Shown here one piece after another: positions 3,341 to 11,181 of a stretch of 32,000 bases of DNA. Both the position numbers and the translations under genes were made by a program. Positions within the stretch are counted from its first letter, which is position 1, and each line of letters opens with the position of its first letter. The stretch covers positions 1,440,001-1,472,000 of the forward strand of contig NZ_CP019384.1 in the NCBI RefSeq assembly GCF_004102945.1. The letters are read 5' to 3'. The notes below the pieces were generated by a model. The model searched no databases, was not told where the DNA came from, and saw only the letters and a list, made by a program, of their open reading frames with translations. Origin of the DNA: Candidatus Velamenicoccus archaeovorus. GTDB taxonomy: Bacteria > Omnitrophota > Gorgyraeia > Velamenicoccales > Velamenicoccaceae.

Positions 3341-3428
3341 GGTGCGGACACCTGTTCTCGCTGTGGCGCTCTGCTGCGCCACGGTCGCTCGCTCAAGTGT
3401 CCGTAAAATTTTCCTTTATCAGGAAAAT
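3341..3428 (-). repeat. Structured repeat A1: 63-nt GGACAC...GTGTCC element (3341-3403) plus AT-rich hairpin (3408-3428)
   Basis: 3341-3403 is 62/63 identical to 6098-6160. CGGACAC/GTGTCCG closes a helix around a GTGGCGC-loop-GCGCCAC hairpin. An adjacent hairpin is ATTTTCC-TTTATCA-GGAAAAT. The reverse complement has the same architecture as 4406-4506. Confidence 0.75.
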
Positions 3429-3497
3429 ACACCAAGGAGCGGCGTCTGAGCCAGAGACTCCGGTAATACCCTCTTCATTCCGCACTATTCAAGCCGG

Positions 3498-3842
3498 CTA
3501 CATATTTATCAACCCGGATAGCATTTTTGAAATATCTTCGATGCCCTTCTTGAGTGACTCATTCAACTCTTCGGTGATCAGCTTCTTTCGCTTACATATC
3601 TCCAAAATAGGAACACATTAAAACGCCGAGCCTCTTGCTATTCGAAAAAAATTTATACGATCTGGCTTGTGATATCTGCCGTTGCCTTCGGCTATGTTTG
3701 CCGATATCGATAAAGAAGCTCGATTAAGTTGATCTGCCAGATAATAGTTGCCCTTCGTAAAACCTTCCGTTAATCCGCAAATCTTATCTGCAAAATCAAC
3801 TGCTTTCTTGTAAACATCTAGTTTTTCGAATAAGAATGCCAT
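3498..3842 (-). pseudogene. Four-helix-bundle protein (23S rRNA intervening-sequence protein family) interrupted by an in-frame TAA
   Basis: MAFLFEKLDVYKKAVDFADKI...NRASLSISANIAEGNGRYHKPDRINFFRIARGSAF, then TAA (3618-3620). The same frame continues CVPILEICKRKKLITEELNESLKKGIEDISKMLSGLINM to TAG at 3498-3500. The stop sits where family members usually have Glu (GAA). Confidence 0.75.
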
Positions 3843-3925
3843 AGCTTTTGAAAATCGATAATCGAAAATAGACCGAATGAAAATCTTCCACAATCAAATC
3901 TCAAATTTCGATTTTCGATTCTCTG

Positions 3926-3961
3926 CCATTTTTGCCAGAGTTTTGCTTGGGGCAAAAATGG
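3926..3961 (-). other. 3' trailer hairpin that pairs with the encoded CCA of tRNA-Ser(CGA)
   Basis: CCATTTTTGCC (3926-3936) is perfectly complementary to GGCAAAAATGG (3951-3961). The latter includes the complement of the tRNA CCA end. No U-tract follows on the minus strand. Confidence 0.45.
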
Positions 3962-4048
3962 CGGAGAGTGAAGGATTCGAACCTTCGTACCCCTTGCGGA
4001 GTAACGCGCTTTCGAGGCGCGCGCTTTCAACCACTCAGCCAACTCTCC
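3959..4048 (-). tRNA. tRNA-Ser (anticodon CGA), CCA encoded
   Basis: The reverse complement GGAGAGTTGGCTGAGTGGTTGAAAGCGCGCGCCTCGAAAGCGCGTTACTCCGCAAGGGGTACGAAGGTTCGAATCCTTCACTCTCCGCCA folds as a class II cloverleaf. It has a 7-bp acceptor, anticodon loop CTCGAAA, a long variable arm and a GGTTCGAATCC T-arm. Confidence 0.95.
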
Positions 4049-4087
4049 AAATTTGTTTTTCCGCCGGAGGCGGACCCGCCTTCGGCG

Positions 4088-4173
4088 GGCGAGACCGCCC
4101 TATTTTGAACACCTAGATGTTTTATCCAGTGAAATCCCGTTTCTTTACGGGACAACCGCTCCGGCAACTCTCC
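4088..4173 (-). pseudogene. Degenerate tRNA-Ser-like unit U1 (uninterrupted)
   Basis: On the minus strand it reads GGAGAGTTGCCGGAGCGGTTG, a hairpin (CCCGT AAAGAA ACGGG), then AGGTGTTCAAAA (a decayed T-loop). Its length of 86 nt is similar to tRNA-Ser. It has no 7-nt anticodon loop and no matching 3' acceptor strand. Confidence 0.45.
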
Positions 4174-4227
4174 AAATAAATGACGCGCTTTTCCCACTAC
4201 GCGGGACTCCGCTCATTTCATTCGCTT

Positions 4228-4409
4228 CGCGAGACGCGCTTTTTGAATACCTAAATTTACTATTTTAGCGAAATCCCGCAAAGCGGGACAACCGCCCGCC
4301 ACCACTGCTTCGGCGGGCGGCCTCCAGTAATACGTCGGCGGCCGTGCTCCGATGCTTCAGTGGAGCATGTCCGCCGACGTTCCAGTGGCGGACGCTCCGG
4401 CAACTCTCC
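4228..4409 (-). pseudogene. Degenerate tRNA-Ser-like unit U2, interrupted by a 97-nt palindromic insertion
   Basis: It has the same 17-nt 5' end as U1 (GGAGAGTTGCCGGAGCG). The insertion follows, then GTTGTCCCGC-TTT-GCGGGA and AGGTATTCAAAAA. It is colinear with U1 apart from the insert. Confidence 0.45.
4296..4392. repeat. Small palindromic insertion element, long version, inside unit U2
   Basis: Termini are CCGCCACCACT...CCAGTGGCGGA. It is flanked by CGC (4293-4295) and CGC (4393-4395), whereas the uninterrupted unit U1 has a single CGC (4157-4159). The interior has nested palindromes (ACGTCGGCGG 4332-4341 / CCGCCGACGT 4371-4380; TGCTCC / GGAGCA). Confidence 0.5.
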
Positions 4410-4506
4410 GAGAAATTTTCTGACAAAGAAAATTTCGAGGACACTAAAGCGAGTGTAGGCGCATAAGCGCCACGACCCGACAAGGGTCGTAACGAACATA
4501 GTGTCT
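4406..4506 (+). repeat. Structured repeat A3 (101 nt): AT-rich hairpin plus three-way-junction GACACTA...TAGTGTC element
   Basis: 98/101 identical to 6414-6514. Components are GAAATTTTC-TGACAAA-GAAAATTTC, then GACACTA...[GGCGC ATAA GCGCC][CGACCC GACAA GGGTCG]...TAGTGTC. Confidence 0.75.
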
Positions 4507-4542
4507 ATTGAGCAAACTTATCCTTCGGATACCCCGACAAAC

Positions 4543-5913
4543 CTAAACATGGATATTCTTCATGATCTCGGCCTTCGTGAGATCGATGGATTTCAAGGCC
4601 TCGTCGGCATCCTTATTGTAAAGCCGGAAGAAACGACAGGCATCCTCCATATCCGAAACGTCCTTATTGTCGAGGATCTTGAGGACCTCGCTGCGCACTT
4701 TCAATTCCTTGATGACGTCCAGGGCATTCATGCCGCTGGCGCGCGCCACCTTATCCCGGAAGACGGACGACGGAGAATCTTCGATAAAAGTGCGCGACTC
4801 GTAGTCATACCTCCAGACCGCAGACAAAAGCACCTTCTTCTGTTCCATCCCGGCCGTCTCGGCGATCTCGGAGACAACGCGAAACACCTCGTCCTTGACA
4901 TGGAACTTGACCAAGGTGATGAAAACATCCACCAGATTCACCAGGGTCTCCGGGATATTCATGGGTTCGTTCTGGAGACGGATGATGGCTTCGCGCGCAG
5001 CGGCCGCATGGATCGTCCCCATGCAATACTTGCCGATGTTCATGGCCGTCATCAGATCCTGGGCTTCCTCACCTCTCACCTCGCCGACCACGATACGCTC
5101 CGGCCGCATACGTAGGGAATTCTTCACGAGATCCGCCAGCGTCACTTCTTCATCGCTTTCCATGCGCGACCAGCTGTCTTCGCGCAGCGTATTCAACTCA
5201 AGCGTGTCTTCGATAATGACCAAGCGCTCCTTACTCGGCACAAAACTCAGCAGGGCGTTCAAAAGCGTCGTCTTACCCGCCCCCGGCGCACCCAAAATAA
5301 GGATATTTGCGGGACGGATGGACATCCCTTCCATATAAAGCCAGAACAGCGCCGCGATATCATAGTTCAGGGCCCCCTTTCGGATCAGATCGATGACGCT
5401 CAATGGATTTTCTTTGATCTTGGTGATCGTGATCTGCGGCCCGAACGGGGACATGGCGATATTCACCCGGCCCTGGACATTGGCCAGCTCCAGATTATTC
5501 AGTTTCTTTAACGACGTCCTGCCGGAAAAAACAACCAGTTTCTTGATAAAAACGTCCAGTTCCTTGGGAGTCGTGAAACGTTTGTCCGTCTGCGTCAGCC
5601 CTTTATAGGTGTGATGGATGTAAATAGGCCTCAAAGAATTAATGACAATGTCTTCCACGTCGGGATCTCTCAACAAATCCTCAATGATCCCGTAACTGAA
5701 AAACTTATCGATAAAATTTTCTCTTTCTGCGTCGTTGGAGAGCTCGCTCAACGTCTGGCTCTGCAGGAAAGTATCTTCCTTTGTCGCGCCGTAGAGCTCG
5801 GAAATGACGTCGCTGACGATATTCTTCTTTTCCGAATCATTCTGCAAAAGATTGATGCGGCCAAGGATCTTGTCCAAAATCTTGGCTTCGATATCGACCT
5901 TGCGCTTTTCCAT
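4543..5913 (-). CDS. Type II/IV secretion system ATPase family protein (GspE/VirB11/TadA-FlaI-like)
   Basis: Walker A GAPGAGKTTLLNAL, Walker B-like RLVIIEDTLEL, RMRPERIVVGEVRGEEA and His-box GTIHA. The ORF extends to a TTG at 5940. ATG at 5911-5913 preceded by GGAAAGGTGAGG is preferred. Confidence 0.85.
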   Translation of the reverse strand: MEKRKVDIEAKILDKILGRINLLQNDSEKKNIVSDVISELYGATKEDTFLQSQTLSELSNDAERENFIDKFFSYGIIEDLLRDPDVEDIVINSLRPIYIHHTYKGLTQTDKRFTTPKELDVFIKKLVVFSGRTSLKKLNNLELANVQGRVNIAMSPFGPQITITKIKENPLSVIDLIRKGALNYDIAALFWLYMEGMSIRPANILILGAPGAGKTTLLNALLSFVPSKERLVIIEDTLELNTLREDSWSRMESDEEVTLADLVKNSLRMRPERIVVGEVRGEEAQDLMTAMNIGKYCMGTIHAAAAREAIIRLQNEPMNIPETLVNLVDVFITLVKFHVKDEVFRVVSEIAETAGMEQKKVLLSAVWRYDYESRTFIEDSPSSVFRDKVARASGMNALDVIKELKVRSEVLKILDNKDVSDMEDACRFFRLYNKDADEALKSIDLTKAEIMKNIHV

Positions 5914-6097
5914 AAGCCTCACCTTTCCATGAGCGCACAACTTATGGAGCCGTCACAAAACAGCGAGACGACATAAGTCGTTTGCGCGAATGGATCCCGA
6001 GCCGCCCGCAACTCATTAAAACGGCGAGGGATCTTTTATCATGCGTTGACTTAACCGATGCTAAAAATTTTTCCCTATAAAGAAAAGCGTAAATTAA

Positions 6098-6189
6098 GGT
6101 GCGGACACCTGTTCTCGCTGTGGCGCTCTGCCGCGCCACGGTCGCTCGCTCAAGTGTCCGCCAAATTTTTCGTTATCCGAAAAATTTGG
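6098..6189 (-). repeat. Structured repeat B1: 63-nt element (6098-6160) plus AT-rich hairpin (6161-6189) that overlaps the tRNA CCA end
   Basis: 6098-6160 matches 3341-3403 at 62/63. The hairpin is CCAAATTTTTCG-TTATC-CGAAAAATTTGG, and its last three bases are the complement of the tRNA-Ser(UGA) CCA. Confidence 0.75.
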
Positions 6190-6276
6190 CGGAGGCGGAA
6201 GGATTCGAACCCTCGGTGGACTTGCGCCCACAACGGTTTTCAAGACCGCCGCATTCAACCGCTCTGCCACGCCTCC
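6187..6276 (-). tRNA. tRNA-Ser (anticodon UGA), CCA encoded
   Basis: Reverse complement GGAGGCGTGGCAGAGCGGTTGAATGCGGCGGTCTTGAAAACCGTTGTGGGCGCAAGTCCACCGAGGGTTCGAATCCTTCCGCCTCCGCCA. It has anticodon loop CTTGAAA, a long variable arm and a canonical T-arm. Confidence 0.95.
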
Positions 6277-6417
6277 AAAATTCCAACTCGGTGCATTTTG
6301 AGCACCTTGATGTCATCATCCAGTGAAAGCCCGTTTCTTTACGGGGCAACCACCCGCCACCACTAAGTCGGCGTGCGTCCGCCGAAGCTCCGGTGGCGGA
6401 CGCTCTGCCACGCCTCC
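6277..6417 (-). pseudogene. Degenerate tRNA-Ser-like unit with a 47-nt palindromic insertion (6354-6400)
   Basis: It starts GGAGGCGTGGCAGAGCG, 17/17 identical to the 5' end of the adjacent functional tRNA. The insertion CCGCCACCACT...CCGGTGGCGGA (plus-strand reading) follows. It then continues GGTTG, a hairpin (CCCGT AAAGAA ACGGG), AAGGTGCTCAAAATGCACCGAG. Confidence 0.45.
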
Positions 6418-6514
6418 GAGAAATTTTCTGACAAAGAAAATTTCGAGGACACTAAAGCGAGTGTAGGCGCATAAGCGCCACGACCTGACAAGGGTCGTAA
6501 CGAGCGTAGTGTCT
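6414..6514 (+). repeat. Structured repeat B3 (101 nt), paralog of 4406-4506
   Basis: It differs from A3 at 3 positions. One of these (C to T in CGACCC) keeps pairing as a G-U wobble only if the plus strand is the RNA. A degenerate extra copy of the AT hairpin lies at 6561-6582. Confidence 0.75.
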
Positions 6515-6588
6515 TTTTTGCTATTTTATAGCGTCCCGACGCACATCAAGGCGACTTTTAGAAAAATTTTCCGACAAAGAAACTGCGG

Positions 6589-7206
6589 CTATCGGACGGC
6601 CCGCACCTCAAACAGCTGCTTGAACGACGCCGTATAGATCGCCCCGGCCTTCTGTCCCGCAGACTTCATGAAATCCGTGAAATAAAAATCGGCCGTCAAC
6701 AGATTGAAGGCGGCGCCGACGATCATGATGTTGATGATGTAAATGGCGAATATCGCAAAAAAATAATTCTCCTTGAGCCAGCCGGCCTGTTTGCCTTTGA
6801 GGGCATTGGCCGTCATGACCAAGTGCATCGTCAGCGCAAAAGCGGCGACAAAGACGAAGCACCCGAAATATTCTTCGAGCTGCGGCCAAACCTTGCGCGC
6901 CGTCATATAGATGACGAAAGTCAGGATGGTGAAGATCGGGATACAGAAACCCGCCACTTTGAAAAAAGGCGCCACAAAGCCGATGGCCGTCTCCGCCATT
7001 TTCTTTCCCGTATCGAAAACCTGGGCCGGCTGATAGAGAAGAATGTGCAAGACGAGATACATGACGACGCCCCATCCAAATGTCGACGGGATGGGCGCCG
7101 GCGTCAGGCTCAAGGCGTTCCAGAAAGCGGCCGTGATGCCGATCACGAAAGGCAGCAACAAAATCGCCAAGAGCAATTTTAAGACAGCTAATATTTTTTC
7201 TTTCAT
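6589..7206 (-). CDS. Hypothetical integral membrane protein (about 5-6 TM segments)
   Basis: ORF 6589..7233 has hydrophobic segments throughout. ATG at 7204-7206 (MKEKILAVL) is preceded by AAAGGAAAG. I recognise no family. Confidence 0.6.
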   Translation of the reverse strand: MKEKILAVLKLLLAILLLPFVIGITAAFWNALSLTPAPIPSTFGWGVVMYLVLHILLYQPAQVFDTGKKMAETAIGFVAPFFKVAGFCIPIFTILTFVIYMTARKVWPQLEEYFGCFVFVAAFALTMHLVMTANALKGKQAGWLKENYFFAIFAIYIINIMIVGAAFNLLTADFYFTDFMKSAGQKAGAIYTASFKQLFEVRAVR

Positions 7207-7387
7207 TTTCTTTCCTTTATCATGCTGTGGCAACGTTTCTGGGTAACGGTCACGTAGCCCGCTTGCTTACCGCCAGGCAGATTCCATTGTTCGGCGACGT
7301 CTTCCGTTTTAAACCATAACCGAACGACCTTGCCTTAACGGGCAACCTTGCCGTAGCCGTTGCCGAAATCACGGCTGCTAAAGCCGG

Positions 7388-8659
7388 CTATCGTTCAATC
7401 CTCTCCAGGCCTCCCATATACGGACGCAACGCGTCGGGAATCACGATGCTGCCGTCCTTCTGCTGGTGGTTTTCAATGATCGCGATGACGGTCCTGGCCA
7501 TGGCCACGCCGGAACCATTAAGCGTATGGAGATACTCAAGCTTCTTGGTCTCTTTGTTCCTGAAACGGATATTGGCGCGCCGGGCCTGAAAGTCGCAGAA
7601 ATTCGAACAGCTCGACACCTCCAGCCACTTGTCCAGGCCGGGGGCATAGGCCTCCAGGTCATAGCACTTGGTCGCGGCAAAGCTGATGTCGCCCGACGCC
7701 AGCAAAACGACGCGATACGGCAGCCCCAGCGCCTGCAGGACGGTCTCGGCATTGCCGACGAGCTTTTCCAGCTCGTCGAAAGAATCCTGCGGCCTGACGA
7801 ATTTCACCAGTTCGACCTTGTCGAACTGGTGCACGCGCACGAGGCCTTTTGTATCCTTGCCGTAGGAACCCGCCTCCCTGCGGAAACATGGCGTATAGGC
7901 GGTGTAATACACGGGCAGAGCACTCTCCTCGAGGACCTCGTCACGGTGAATGTTGGTGACGGGGACTTCAGCCGTCGGGATAAGAAAAAGATCGTCATCC
8001 TTAAGGCGGTACATGTCCTCCTCAAGCTTGGGCAGCTGCCCCGTCCCCGTCATGCTGGCGCGGTTGACCAGCGCCGGCGGCCACATCTCCCTGTAGCCGT
8101 GTTTCGACGTATGCAGGTCAAGCATAAAATTGATCAGCGCCCTCTCCAGCTTCGCCCCCAACCCCTTAAAAAGGACGAAGTTCGACCCCGAAAGTTTGGC
8201 TCCCCGGGCAAAATCCACAATATCCAGATACTCGCAGAGCTCCGTATGAGAGCGCGGTTTAAAATCAAAGGTCTTCGGCTGACCCCATTGCCGGACGATC
8301 TGGTTGTGCGAAGGATCACCTGCAGGGACCGATGTATGGACGATATTGGGGATGACCAAAAGCAGTTTCTCCAGGGACTCTTCCGTCTGACGCAGGCCCG
8401 CCTCGCAGGCATCGATACGGCCGGCAACGTCTTTCATCGTGGCGATCGTCGGTTTAGGGTCCTTCCTTTCCTTGAGGAGCCTGGTGATGGCGTCGTTGGC
8501 TTCATTCTTCTGGCGACGCAGGTCGTCGAGCTCGGTCAGGATGCGGCGACGCTCTTCATCGAGCTTCAAAAGTTCGTCCAAGCTCAATTTCGAGCCGCGC
8601 TTTTCCAGCGATGCCCTGACAAGGTCCGCGTTATCCCGGATAAAACGGATATCTAACAT
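7388..8659 (-). CDS. serS: Seryl-tRNA synthetase
   Basis: 423 aa. It has an N-terminal coiled-coil arm (MLDIRFIRDN...), class II motifs (FRREAGS..GKDTKGLVRVHQFDKVE; GSGVAMARTVIAIIENHQ) and the RBS AGGAGAA. Confidence 0.97.
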   Translation of the reverse strand: MLDIRFIRDNADLVRASLEKRGSKLSLDELLKLDEERRRILTELDDLRRQKNEANDAITRLLKERKDPKPTIATMKDVAGRIDACEAGLRQTEESLEKLLLVIPNIVHTSVPAGDPSHNQIVRQWGQPKTFDFKPRSHTELCEYLDIVDFARGAKLSGSNFVLFKGLGAKLERALINFMLDLHTSKHGYREMWPPALVNRASMTGTGQLPKLEEDMYRLKDDDLFLIPTAEVPVTNIHRDEVLEESALPVYYTAYTPCFRREAGSYGKDTKGLVRVHQFDKVELVKFVRPQDSFDELEKLVGNAETVLQALGLPYRVVLLASGDISFAATKCYDLEAYAPGLDKWLEVSSCSNFCDFQARRANIRFRNKETKKLEYLHTLNGSGVAMARTVIAIIENHQQKDGSIVIPDALRPYMGGLERIER

Positions 8660-9220
8660 TTATTCTCCTGTGGCTTTGAACTTCTTCAAGGCGTCCTGGA
8701 TGATGGAGGCCGGCTTGTCGGCATCGAGGAGACCGCAGAAGACGATTTCGGCTTTCTCGAAGCCCGGGACACCCACACTCCCGGTGCCCGGCGTAAAAAC
8801 CTTCAGGCTCCAGATCCCCAGCCCCTGTTCGATGATGTTCTGATTGACCTCAACATCCGTGATCTTATGAAACGGCACGCTGCGGCGCCGGCGCACAAAG
8901 ATCCCGCCCTCAAAAACGCACCGCTGATTCGTCACGGTGTAATGGAACGTCTCAAGAAGATGACGGTAATAAAACAAAGCACAGGCCAAAACGACCGGCG
9001 CCGAGAAAATGAGGAGAGACGGAACAAGGATAAAGACCGGCTCTTTCATGTGGTGCGCAGCGGCATAGATCACGCAGGCGATGACGGACAGATAAGCCAA
9101 GATGCCGCAGATAACCAAAGACATAAGGATCACCCGCGTCAGGAGCCACATCACATAGATCCTTTTCTCGGGCCTCCCTTCCCATAAAACTTGTTCGCCT
9201 TCCTGCAGCGCAAAAGCCAT
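8660..9220 (-). CDS. Membrane protein with bacterial PH domain (bPH_2 / YdbS-YdbT-like)
   Basis: Two N-terminal TM helices are followed by HYTVTNQRCVFEGGIFVRRRRSVPFHKITDVEV, typical of bPH_2. RBS is AAGGAGGAG. Its stop abuts the serS start codon. Confidence 0.7.
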   Translation of the reverse strand: MAFALQEGEQVLWEGRPEKRIYVMWLLTRVILMSLVICGILAYLSVIACVIYAAAHHMKEPVFILVPSLLIFSAPVVLACALFYYRHLLETFHYTVTNQRCVFEGGIFVRRRRSVPFHKITDVEVNQNIIEQGLGIWSLKVFTPGTGSVGVPGFEKAEIVFCGLLDADKPASIIQDALKKFKATGE

Positions 9221-9280
9221 GTCTCCTCCTTACCCCTTAACAACCCCCAAAGGCCGCCCTTCGCTACGCTCAGGACTCCC

Positions 9281-10741
9281 CTAACCTTTAACAACTCCCA
9301 ATGGTCGCATCCGGCAGACGCGCCTGGCAATGCCGGCGTTGTGCACAACGCCGACGACGTCATTGACATCTTTGTACGCACTAGGGGCCTCTTCCACGAC
9401 CGTCCCGTGCCCCGACGCCATGACCACGATACCCTTGGCCTCAAGTTCCTTCATCAATGCGTGAAAATCCACAACCCTCTTGGCCTCGTGTCTGGACCTG
9501 AGGCGGCCGGCACCATGGCAGGTCGAGCCGAACGTCTCGTCCATCGCGGCCTGTGTCCCGACGAGCAAATAAGAATTGCGCCCCATGTCGCCGGGGATGA
9601 TCACCGGCTGGCCGATTCGCTTGTATCTCTCGGGGACAGCCGGATGTCCTGGCCCGAAGGCGCGGGTCGCTCCTTTACGGTGCACGCACAGCGTGCGTTC
9701 CTCGCCCTTGACGCGGTGCGTCTCGATCTTGGCGATGTTGTGCGCCACGTCATAGACGAGGCGCATCCCAAGCTTCTGCCACGATGAAACAAAAACCTTC
9801 TCAAAAACCTGACGCGCCAGATGCATCAGGCATTGGCGGTTGTTCCAGGCATAATTCGCCGCCGCGCGCATCGCCGCCAGGTAATCCTTCCCCTCGGGCG
9901 ACTCCACGGGCGCGCACGCCAACTGCCTGTCGGGCACATGAATATGGTACTTCTCCAGACAGGTGTTCATCGTTTTCAAAGAATCATCGCAGACCTGATA
10001 TCCCAACCCCCGGGAACCGGAGTGGATCATCACCATGACCTGGCCTTCAACCAGGCCCAAGGCATCCGCTGCATCCCTGTCGTAAAGCTGGTCGATGGCC
10101 TGGACTTCCAAAAAATGGTTGCCCGAACCCAGGGTGCCTGATTGCTGCTTGCCGCGCGCATACGCCCGGTCGGAGACCTTCTCGGGGTCCGCGCCGGCCA
10201 TCGCTCCGCGCTCTTCGGTGGCCTCCAAGTCGTCTTCGGTGCCGTAACCCTTGGCGACAGCCCATCCTGCGCCCTTGACAAGGATCTCTTTTTCTTCCCT
10301 GGCGGTCACGCGGATATCTCCTTCGGACCCGACGCCTGAAGGCACCGCATGGAACAGACCGGCGACCAATTCCTTGAGATGCGGCCTGACGTCTTTCTCA
10401 AAAAGATCAGTCCTTACCAACCGCACCCCGCAGTTGATATCATAGCCGACGCCGCCCGGGGACACCACGCCCCCTTTTTCGATATCCATGGCCGCGACGC
10501 CGCCGATGGCAAACCCGTAACCCCAATGGATGTCCGGCATCCCGAAAGACGCCTTGACGATCCCGGGCAAAAAGGAAACATTCGCCACCTGCTCGGCGGC
10601 CTTGTCGTGGCGGATGTCCTTCAACAGTTTCTCATCCGCATAGATGATGCCGTCGACGCGCATGCCGGCTTTATAGGTCCTGGGGATCCGCCAGCGGTAA
10701 TCGTCAATCTTCTCTAAAGGGCCGTCCCAGATTTGAGACAT
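9281..10741 (-). CDS. rtcB: RNA 3'-phosphate/2',3'-cyclic phosphate ligase RtcB
   Basis: 486 aa with RtcB hallmarks: GYDINCGVR, GSGNHFLEVQ, IHSGSRGLG, CHGAGR, and HRPLGVVKG-like C-terminal sequence. Confidence 0.95.
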   Translation of the reverse strand: MSQIWDGPLEKIDDYRWRIPRTYKAGMRVDGIIYADEKLLKDIRHDKAAEQVANVSFLPGIVKASFGMPDIHWGYGFAIGGVAAMDIEKGGVVSPGGVGYDINCGVRLVRTDLFEKDVRPHLKELVAGLFHAVPSGVGSEGDIRVTAREEKEILVKGAGWAVAKGYGTEDDLEATEERGAMAGADPEKVSDRAYARGKQQSGTLGSGNHFLEVQAIDQLYDRDAADALGLVEGQVMVMIHSGSRGLGYQVCDDSLKTMNTCLEKYHIHVPDRQLACAPVESPEGKDYLAAMRAAANYAWNNRQCLMHLARQVFEKVFVSSWQKLGMRLVYDVAHNIAKIETHRVKGEERTLCVHRKGATRAFGPGHPAVPERYKRIGQPVIIPGDMGRNSYLLVGTQAAMDETFGSTCHGAGRLRSRHEAKRVVDFHALMKELEAKGIVVMASGHGTVVEEAPSAYKDVNDVVGVVHNAGIARRVCRMRPLGVVKG

Positions 10742-10755
10742 AAAACAGGGCTCCG

Positions 10756-11181
10756 TTACACGTCGAAGATCACATGGGCCTGCCAGCGGTTCCGCACCTT
10801 CTTGATTTCCAGCTCATGGTAGGTGACGGCCTTGATCTCGTCTTTGACGGTATAATGTTCCCTGTCAAAAGCGTCGAACAAGACAAAGGCCTTCATCTCC
10901 CTGTCGCCCAGCTCAATAGACTTGATACGGACCAGGACCAGATGCTCGACGCTATAGCAGAAAAGGAGCTCGTCCATCCAGGCCTTCAGCAGGTCCTCGG
11001 GCGCCTCCCCGCAGACGGAGATCTCTTTTTCCGTCAATGCCGCCCCCGGCCTGTTTTTGGTCTTCTCCAGAAGAACCGCAAACATCGCCCAGGCCGCCGA
11101 TTCAAAAAGGTCTTTCAAAGACCGGCCGAAAAGACGTACGGCAACATCTGCCGTATGCTTTAAAAATTCATATCTTTTCAT
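10756..11181 (-). CDS. Archease (RtcB activator)
   Basis: 141 aa. The N-terminal YEFLKHTADVAVRLFG and C-terminal KAVTYHELEIKK motifs are typical of archease. It lies 14 nt upstream of rtcB. Confidence 0.9.
   Translation of the reverse strand: MKRYEFLKHTADVAVRLFGRSLKDLFESAAWAMFAVLLEKTKNRPGAALTEKEISVCGEAPEDLLKAWMDELLFCYSVEHLVLVRIKSIELGDREMKAFVLFDAFDREHYTVKDEIKAVTYHELEIKKVRNRWQAHVIFDV

Follow-up and report, generated by a model that had tools for sequence, protein, structure and literature searches.

In this work we have analysed a stretch of 32,000 nucleotides from Candidatus Velamenicoccus archaeovorus, a member of the Omnitrophota (contig NZ_CP019384.1, positions 1,440,001 to 1,472,000; this whole stretch is called the window below), in which two tRNA-Ser genes are accompanied by near-identical, inverted repeats. 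Both genes lie on the minus strand, tRNA-Ser(CGA) at 3959-4048 and tRNA-Ser(UGA) at 6187-6276, and ARAGORN and Rfam place both of them there, in agreement with the first-pass annotation of this DNA. The repeats which that annotation reported were also recovered as described: on the 3' side, 3341-3403 and 6098-6160 are identical at 62 of 63 positions, and on the 5' side, 4406-4506 and 6414-6514 at 98 of 101. The likeness reaches past these limits: over the longer stretches it is 81/88 for the 3' elements and 136/153 for the 5' elements. It had been stressed that the flanks are better kept than the two isoacceptors, but this says little, since isoacceptors are expected to differ (66/92 identity). 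We report here that the repeats are hairpin-forming modules of about 95 bp and that they are an undescribed family, specific to the ends of tRNA-Ser and transfer-messenger RNA (tmRNA) genes in Omnitrophota. Literature searches found no publication on these elements.

The window holds four modules, two in each tRNA-Ser cassette. The 3' module of the UGA cassette (6090..6193, minus strand, core 6098-6160, 48.9 bits with the covariance model) has a perfect 16-bp gene-end palindrome (6157-6172 / 6178-6193) which takes in the tRNA nucleotides TCCGCCA, and its 5' module lies at 6418..6520 on the plus strand (75.6 bits). In the CGA cassette the 3' module (3341..3429, minus strand, 43.1 bits) is 530 nt away from the tRNA. 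It has a core at 3341-3403, built as GGACAC..AGCGAG..GTGGCGC hairpin..AGCGAG..GTGTCC, and an AT hairpin at 3404-3429 whose left arm has partly decayed. The core is parted from its own tRNA by 555 nt holding a 23S_rRNA_IVP gene, and a newer gene-end palindrome has formed at the tRNA itself (3920..3967, minus strand; TCTCCGCCATTTTTGCC / GGCAAAAATGGCAGAGA, with a 14-nt loop). The 5' module of this cassette (4410..4512, plus strand, 75.5 bits) begins with an AT hairpin with a TGACAAA loop, followed by the GGACAC..GTGTC stem with an AGCGAG box, a GGCGC hairpin and a CGACCC-GACAA-GGGTCG hairpin. A remnant of a further AT hairpin, its left arm and GACAA loop, is found at 6550..6582 on the plus strand. 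The earlier statement that each functional tRNA sits between two elements holds only loosely, since the 5' elements do not abut the functional tRNAs but pseudo-5' fragments, which begin with 17-nt copies of the tRNA 5' end (GGAGAGTTGCCGGAGCG at 4409-4393 and GGAGGCGTGGCAGAGCG at 6417-6401), and between these copies and the real genes there are 360 nt (CGA) and 124 nt (UGA) of structured sequence. All the hairpins named in the first-pass annotation are present, and each element folds well beyond its shuffled controls (z = -4.1 to -7.0). A degenerate pattern, GGACACT..AGCGAG..GGCGC..GCGCCAC, has exactly four matches in the window and none in 100 shuffles; all four are at tRNA-Ser, two on each strand, and the two element types are thus inverted versions of one architecture, as had been proposed.

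The module consists of two domains. The first is a perfect AT-rich palindrome, or hairpin, whose foot takes in the final 3-8 nt of the gene, as in TCCGCCAAATTTTTCG-GATAA-CGAAAAATTTGGCGGA, CCACCA...TGGTGG on tmRNA and CCGT...ACGG on genes without an encoded CCA. The foot covaries with the end of the target and reads CCGCCA/TGGCGG, CCACCA/TGGTGG (on tmRNA) or CCGT/ACGG. The second domain is a closing stem, GGACACU/AGUGUCC, in which two AGCGAG(CG) boxes, able to pair antiparallel via tandem G·A, flank a GC hairpin with a loop that is usually GACAA or GAUAA. We distinguish three subtypes. Most lineages and all 5' copies, including both of the window, have the alpha subtype. The beta subtype comprises the 3' copies of the clade to which the window belongs and supplies the CCA; orthologous tRNA-Ser(UGA) genes without a beta module (loci L053 and L058) encode no CCA. 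In the gamma subtype (L054, L057) the closing stems are wholly different yet complementary, for instance GGAUACUUAACAAAUG/CAUUUGUUAAGUAUC. The orientation of the module relative to its target, CTCTCC-G, is constant. All 5' copies have a G after CTCTCC in the element sense, which is a C at tRNA position -1 and matches the discriminator G73 of the 3' copies, whereas position -1 in the module-free tRNA-Ser genes that we inspected is A, T or G. This shared C suggests that the 5' copies stem from a 3'-type unit including the discriminator. The 3' end of the module itself resembles a tRNA end (e.g. GTCTCCGCCA in L039), which is explicable by the shared pairing partner.

The first-pass annotation had recognized no named RNA or repeat family in the module, and as far as Rfam is concerned we came to the same result: with Rfam 15, including the HDV-like, hammerhead, twister, hatchet and pistol ribozymes, only tRNA and tmRNA reached the gathering threshold, and with permissive limits (an E-value of 10 for the window and of 0.1 for L030, L031 and L054) no other family covered the modules. 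Weak matches to sX4 and to a plastid untranslated-region family merely overlap the tRNAs. Nor is the module an integron attC site, since the R''/R' core sites (RYYYAAC ... GTTRRRY) are not at its ends, which are GGACAC/GTGTCC, and there is only one internal GTTAAAC. Intrinsic terminators were not called at any of the four window modules; there is no U-tract, and the sequences after the stem vary.

How widely is the module distributed, and is it confined to these genes? A scan of one genome per GTDB species with the degenerate pattern gave 25 loci, six of which hold the eight matches with the shared architecture, and all of these adjoin tRNA-Ser (UGA, CGA or GCU). Four of the six come from metagenome-assembled genomes of Omnitrophota and two (L005, L023) from bins labelled Planctomycetia. 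The beta modules of both bins are near-identical to those of the window and the ATPase encoded in L023 is 95% identical to the window protein, so that we have treated the bins as apparently Omnitrophota-like, L005 on module likeness only. A metagenome scan added about 20 further loci. With an nhmmer profile and then a covariance model we obtained 43 matches in 334 kb, and every one of them lies directly after a tRNA-Ser gene (four isoacceptors, UGA, CGA, GGA and GCU), directly before a tRNA-Ser gene on the opposite strand, directly after tmRNA (L028 and L045, where Rfam identifies the tmRNA) or next to a decayed tRNA end. These correspond to about 40 copies, all at tRNA-Ser or tmRNA ends or their remnants. 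A dispersed repeat of the repetitive extragenic palindromic (REP) type or its mosaic form (BIME), which the first-pass annotation had kept in view, is ruled out by this distribution, as neither the genome and metagenome scans nor the model search gave a true match elsewhere. Gene-end palindromes were found at 21 of 47 tRNA-Ser and tmRNA genes and at none of 14 other tRNAs. In viral contigs, 22 matches to GGACACTNNAGCGAGCG were due to chance. A phage-like lineage (L081-L084; IMG/VR uncultivated virus genome 3300045988; L082 3140-3320) has an intergenic GCGAGGC-GATAA-GCCGAGC hairpin with two AGCGAGCG boxes and no tRNA, and in L053 (12082-12270) three tandem units of about 62 nt (tcttgctgcctctggcagcaagaggcggatgccgaagcctctggctttggcgccgttaccttaa) follow tRNA-Ser(CGA), a different hairpin repeat at the same site.

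The copies are unevenly spread over their targets. Some loci have a module at the 3' end only (L016-UGA, L030, L031, L036, L023, L040 and tmRNA), others at the 5' end only (L017, L029, L042), and several tRNA-Ser genes have none (L052, L053, L055, L056, L058). Tandem copies occur in L005, L040, L047 and L049, and partial or decayed ones at L016:2774, at L035:1928, in the 5' copy of L006 (six A·C) and in L049. Modules can also stay intact when cargo or tRNA fragments have displaced them from the tRNA (the CGA cassette of the window, L039, L001/L044). The 3' module at the CGA gene is present in the window and absent in L047, despite an ATPase which is 99.6% identical. This difference and the decayed copies show that modules are born and lost, a turnover like that of miniature inverted-repeat transposable elements (MITEs).

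The module is strongly conserved, as had been claimed. The ATPase gene between the two cassettes is syntenic in five loci, and its identity to the window at 4-fold degenerate sites is 0.92 in L047, 0.70 in L016, 0.69 in L023 and 0.59 in L044. In the same comparisons the core of the 3' module is 92-95% identical, far above the neutral sites (59-70% between species). As for the copying or gene conversion between the window loci which had been deduced from their likeness, the 3' copies speak for it: both carry CAGGTGTCC where other genomes have CAAGTGCCC, and because this variant is common to both, concerted evolution or copying between the two loci is likely. The helices also carry many compensatory substitutions. 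We aligned 40 distinct copies by covariance-model realignment to a structure given by hand; the alignment is thus fitted to the structure, which somewhat inflates the figures that follow. Pairing extends to 92.7% of the cells of this alignment, both partners have changed in 25 of 29 pairs, and the covariation is strong in all four helices. None of 500 shuffles reached any of the five measures used, and with the partner slid by 1-3 columns pairing fell to 38-47%. RNAalifold on a plain MAFFT alignment had found only eight pairs, with the hairpins out of register, a result superseded by the model realignment. Given such strong covariation, the hairpins are maintained.

Are they maintained as DNA or as RNA? 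The 18 distinct gene-end hairpins contain 279 Watson-Crick pairs, one A·C and not a single G·U, and despite great sequence diversity they are perfect palindromes at the DNA level. Elsewhere in the module G·U (36) occurs at about the same frequency as A·C (27), and the inner helices give no clear strand signal. The transcript of the 5' copies in the direction of the tRNA would carry UUGUC loops and C·U mismatches; nevertheless, the inverted 5' copy is conserved equally well, and its AT hairpin with the first 20 nt is identical in the window, L047, L006, L017 and L029. These observations weaken the strand-specific RNA with a three-way junction that the first-pass annotation implied, and the many one-sided loci and the turnover of copies also speak against it. 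Overall, a mobile or recombination module with a specific target seems to describe the repeats better than a strand-specific structured RNA does. Promoter prediction gave no convincing site at the window cassettes. The only clear promoter is in L017, where a sigma-70 promoter (10/12) ends 5 nt before the 5' module, which there is certainly part of a transcribed leader.

We tentatively favour the view, with rather less than even confidence, that the repeats are a palindromic DNA module, non-autonomous and target-specific, and that the two window cassettes have evolved in concert. The module sits at a single precise site, the border of the acceptor-stem sequence CTC(T)CC with the discriminator base of tRNA-Ser, or of the similar end of tmRNA. 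As the acceptor stem is an inverted repeat, its other strand offers this target once more at the gene's 5' end, and this would account for the reversed orientation of the 5' copy. The module pairs with its target, its AT hairpin having a foot complementary to the final nucleotides of the gene. Insertion there should do no harm, since leader and trailer are trimmed off the precursor by RNase P and the enzymes of 3' processing. New copies may arise at the DNA level, by hairpin-dependent transposition or recombination. The route could resemble that of the palindrome-associated elements (PATEs) and REP elements derived from IS200/IS605, in which the target is read by base pairing, or it could use a site-specific recombinase. 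The near-identity of the two window cassettes would then reflect recent copying or gene conversion. Tandem, half-deleted and decayed copies, together with presence and absence among relatives, make up a life cycle typical of selfish repeats. In L017, deletion of the module would presumably restore the usual spacing between promoter and tRNA.

Several observations weigh against this proposal. No transposase, integrase, HUH or RAYT (Y1 transposase) gene was found near any copy in the examined loci. We found neither a clean empty site nor a target-site duplication, and the seemingly unoccupied site in L052 resembles a decayed copy. The contrast between the core and the 4-fold sites, at apparently orthologous positions, is accounted for by purifying selection on a host function no less well than by recent spread. 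On the element-sense strand there are sheared-type G·A motifs in tandem (CGAG/GAGC) and pentaloops of the form GAYAA, both typical of RNA, and in L017 the modules are certainly transcribed as leader.

A second explanation is one that we consider possible although doubtful: the modules could be cis-acting RNA structures in leader and trailer, transcribed with tRNA-Ser and tmRNA and serving in processing, insulation or the 3' end. Perhaps the gene-end hairpin defines or masks the 3' end of the tRNA, and the second stem guards the ends of the flanking transcript after cleavage by RNase P and at the 3' end; an inverted hairpin still folds, so that a module turned round could serve the 5' side. Such a role would accord with the position of the modules exactly at the mature ends of CCA-encoding and CCA-less genes alike, with the compensatory change in the foot on tmRNA, with the covariation in four helices and with the conservation of the core. 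The promoter directly upstream of the 5' module in L017, the G·A tandems and GNRNA-like loops on the transcribed strand of the 3' copies, and the gene order also agree with it, since the genes of the region are all on one strand and tRNA-Ser and tmRNA stand within long strings of genes in the same direction. It is more difficult to see why the 5' copies, which would give the complementary RNA with C·U and UUGUC, should keep their AT hairpin 100% conserved across species, or why the 280 gene-end pairs should contain no G·U and the remaining helices about as many A·C as G·U. The explanation also offers no reason for the specificity for Ser and tmRNA (0/14 other tRNAs), there is no U-tract terminator signature, and many genes lack the module or have a decayed one.

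The surroundings of the modules bring a further explanation into consideration. Between module and functional tRNA there are often pieces of tRNA-Ser: 5' fragments in the window, L047, L016, L023, L055 and L057, and 3' halves starting from the anticodon loop in L001/L044. In the window we identified three pseudo-5' units, all on the minus strand. Unit A2 (4049..4173) is a copy of tRNA positions 1-21, with a 50-nt insert between GGTTG and AA and an anticodon-loop mimic in which CTCG and AAAA enclose an insert. Unit A1 (4174..4409) has the 17-nt 5' copy, a hairpin insert (TCCGCCAC...), a D-loop insert and an anticodon-loop mimic which holds CGAAGCGAATGAAATGAGCGGAG, identical in the distant locus L031. 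Unit B1 (6277..6417) combines the 17-nt copy of the tRNA 5' end with a hairpin insert, a D-loop insert and tRNA positions 22-30. Each 5' fragment repeats the beginning (17-21 nt) of the tRNA downstream of it; the match is exact at the UGA gene of the window, in L055 and at L057-UGA, and diverged at the CGA gene of the window and at L057-CGA. The fragments carry conserved inserts at fixed positions, and a stretch of 23 nt in one insert is the same in the window and in L031. Such an arrangement is like that of a miniature integrated element with direct repeats on both sides, or else like a conserved tRNA-like leader.

Some details of these regions (window 4049-4409 and 6277-6417 on the minus strand; L031 ~2120-2293; L055 11925-12020 and 13730-13815; L057 11875-12037 and 17585-17723) may be added. 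Conserved hairpins (TCCGCCAC..GGCGGA) follow the 5' fragments, and the 50-nt insert between GGTTG and AA is frequent; where there is an anticodon-loop mimic, as is often the case, its first two anticodon bases match the downstream tRNA. In L001 (75-356, minus strand) and L044 (1458-1790, plus strand) the functional gene is followed by a pile of two 3' halves, which come from different alleles of tRNA-Ser(UGA); before each half stand GGTCTTG and a 60-nt insert with a GCGA..GAGC tandem G·A hairpin.

The genes found as cargo between module and tRNA code for an intervening-sequence (IVS) protein and for GIY-YIG, FRG and ankyrin/SIR2/PLD proteins. In the window this cargo is the 23S_rRNA_IVP gene between tRNA-Ser(CGA) and its displaced 3' module (3497..3893, minus strand; a four-helix-bundle, Avd-like protein). 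It matches PF05635 with E = 1.1e-29 when read through an in-frame TAA, and it is a probable pseudogene; the TAA sits where an acidic residue is expected. Small GIY-YIG nuclease genes adjoin tRNA-Ser in three loci (L017 ~3760-3900, L040 740-1000, L058 12092-12334), small conserved membrane-protein genes (~95-110 aa) stand among tRNA-Ser genes (L030 2000-2550; L031 2400-2700 and 3110-3400), and defence-type genes (SIR2_2, PLDc_2, HamA with a helicase) edge tRNA-Ser clusters (L057 18090-20961, L054 20452-21275). The tRNA genes themselves are replaced as well: between the window (3959-4048) and L047 (2230-2320) the tRNA-Ser(CGA) alleles and their 3' flanks are wholly different. With an ATPase as similar as theirs, the tRNA gene must have been replaced very recently.

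Could the modules then be remnant arms of integrase-type islands, i.e. attL-proximal ends of elements that use tRNA-Ser and tmRNA as att sites, with the AGCGAGCG boxes as arm-type binding sites? Piled partial tRNA-Ser copies (the 3' halves and 5' fragments just described) are typical of serial integration, and cargo open reading frames lie between tRNA and displaced module in the window, L039 and L057. Moreover, tRNA-Ser and tmRNA are classic targets of integration (Williams 2002, Nucleic Acids Research). We nevertheless regard this origin as unlikely. No integrase was found in any locus examined, the modules are distal to the cargo and abut the oldest tRNA fragment, and mirror copies at 5' ends are unusual for integrases. 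In addition, the internal helices covary, as expected of hairpins rather than of duplex binding sites.

It is also conceivable, if improbable, that the 5' and 3' modules pair with each other around the tRNA and that the precursor is cut in this long-range stem, like the RNase III stems of rRNA operons or the bulge-helix-bulge stems of archaea. The minimum-free-energy fold of the whole UGA cassette does pair both modules (-200.8 kcal/mol, z = -8.6), 15 of 17 inner-helix positions still pair in the diverged L016-CGA cassette, and the window CGA cassette contains a gene of the IVS four-helix-bundle type, as 23S rRNA intervening sequences do. We rank this explanation low because any pair of inverted repeats folds in this way, most loci are one-sided and the partners are not compensated: they show no co-evolution, and the alpha 5' and beta 3' copies of the same cassettes leave U·U and U·G. 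A bulge-helix-bulge motif was not seen either.

More questions are raised by the genes next to the UGA cassette. On the minus strand of the window a cluster at 7388..11181 encodes archease (10756-11181), RtcB (9281-10741), a bPH_2 protein (8660-9220) and SerRS (7388-8659), and the gene of a membrane protein (6589-7233) follows SerRS. The SerRS is 100% identical to a protein recorded for Ca. Velamenicoccus archaeovorus. Compared among nine Omnitrophota loci (window, L051, L052, L054-L058 and L053), the order archease-RtcB-(bPH_2)-SerRS-membrane protein-tRNA-Ser is kept in eight, while SerRS identity falls from 100% to 71% and the outer neighbours change; L053 keeps archease beside SerRS and has no RtcB. 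The conserved order suggests that RtcB may act on tRNA-Ser. Literature searches found nothing on a linkage of RtcB and SerRS. In three loci the gene for a TadA-type deaminase, an enzyme which edits tRNA-Arg(ACG), stands directly after the gene of that tRNA, with tRNA-Ser(GCU) next in line (L039 8768-9420, L054 15334-15921, L055 16352-16957).

Is it possible that the modules are signals for a cutting and joining of RNA that is coupled to RtcB? Cleavage of tRNA-Ser or tmRNA precursors by an endonuclease or a self-cleaving fold would produce 2',3'-cyclic phosphate and 5'-OH termini, to be joined or repaired by the RtcB-archease pair beside serS. The tRNA could be excised and its flanks re-ligated, the RNA could be circularised, or the tRNA-Ser fragments with their inserts could be spliced. 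The kept gene order would fit such a process, as would the tRNA-Ser fragments with their conserved inserts at fixed D-loop and anticodon-loop positions, including the 23 nt shared by distant lineages, and the placement of TadA shows that in these genomes enzyme and substrate do cluster. We consider it very doubtful. No endonuclease, Rfam ribozyme match or bulge-helix-bulge motif which could link RtcB to the module was found at the loci, and one locus lacks RtcB. Folds of the anticodon-loop inserts as bulge-helix-bulge or intron structures were rejected, as they were no better than shuffles, and complete intron-less tRNA-Ser genes exist for every isoacceptor, so that splicing is not needed. Equally far-fetched, in our opinion, is a dedicated tRNA-Ser/tmRNA system of the Omnitrophota, in which the modules would mark precursor or gene boundaries for a hairpin-specific nuclease and archease-RtcB would re-join or repair the products; if true, the fast replacement of tRNA-Ser alleles would reflect an arms race over this tRNA, with protein-dependent cutting and joining of tRNA in a bacterium.

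If the repeats are, as we tentatively favour, a target-specific selfish element, they would represent a new safe-haven strategy, the insertion at the mature-end boundaries of a stable RNA gene by means of its palindromic acceptor stem. If they are a host signal, they would point to a phylum-specific step in the maturation of tRNA-Ser and tmRNA. Either way, the modules border a very fast-evolving locus, in which relatives exchange whole tRNA-Ser alleles and small cargo genes beside a conserved RtcB-archease-SerRS cluster, and this makes the role of a bacterial RtcB directly testable in Omnitrophota.

The module shares single features with several known systems. The tRNA and tmRNA att sites of integrative elements involve the same target genes, with partial tRNA duplications and cargo adjacent; they differ in that no integrase was found here and that our modules, about 95 bp long, are themselves hairpins and lie outside the cargo. 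The HDV-like 'theta' ribozymes of gut phages are likewise structured elements directly 3' of a tRNA, but the module matches no Rfam ribozyme, has no double-pseudoknot and also occurs inverted at 5' ends. In the leader-trailer stems of rRNA operons, processed by RNase III in bacteria and, at a bulge-helix-bulge joined by RtcB, in archaea, the gene of a stable RNA likewise stands between inverted repeats that are able to pair with each other; an IVS-type protein gene in one cassette and RtcB encoded nearby add to this likeness, whereas the module is often one-sided, its partners do not co-evolve and no bulge-helix-bulge was found. Correia elements (CREE), enterobacterial repetitive intergenic consensus (ERIC) sequences and the Rickettsia palindromic elements are imperfect palindromes of about 100-150 bp which are co-transcribed, fold as RNA, can change the processing of transcripts and undergo birth and decay. 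They are dispersed, however, and have terminal inverted repeats and target duplications (TA for Correia), while the module, compared with such MITE-like repeats, has one defined target, an internal palindrome and no clean duplication that we could detect. Finally, REP/BIME, the REPINs mobilised by RAYT and the PATEs of IS200/IS605 are, like the module, short non-coding hairpin DNA modules that occur singly, in tandem or as inverted pairs. The module differs from REP and PATE elements in having few copies per locus rather than hundreds, in its strict confinement to tRNA-Ser and tmRNA ends and in its greater length and two domains, and it has no GTAG head and no Y1 transposase at the examined loci. 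In the IS200/IS605 system the target is read by base pairing at the foot of a hairpin, and insertion is orientation-specific and leaves no target duplication. For the module transposition is only inferred, but foot and target are complementary and covary, and its orientation is constant.

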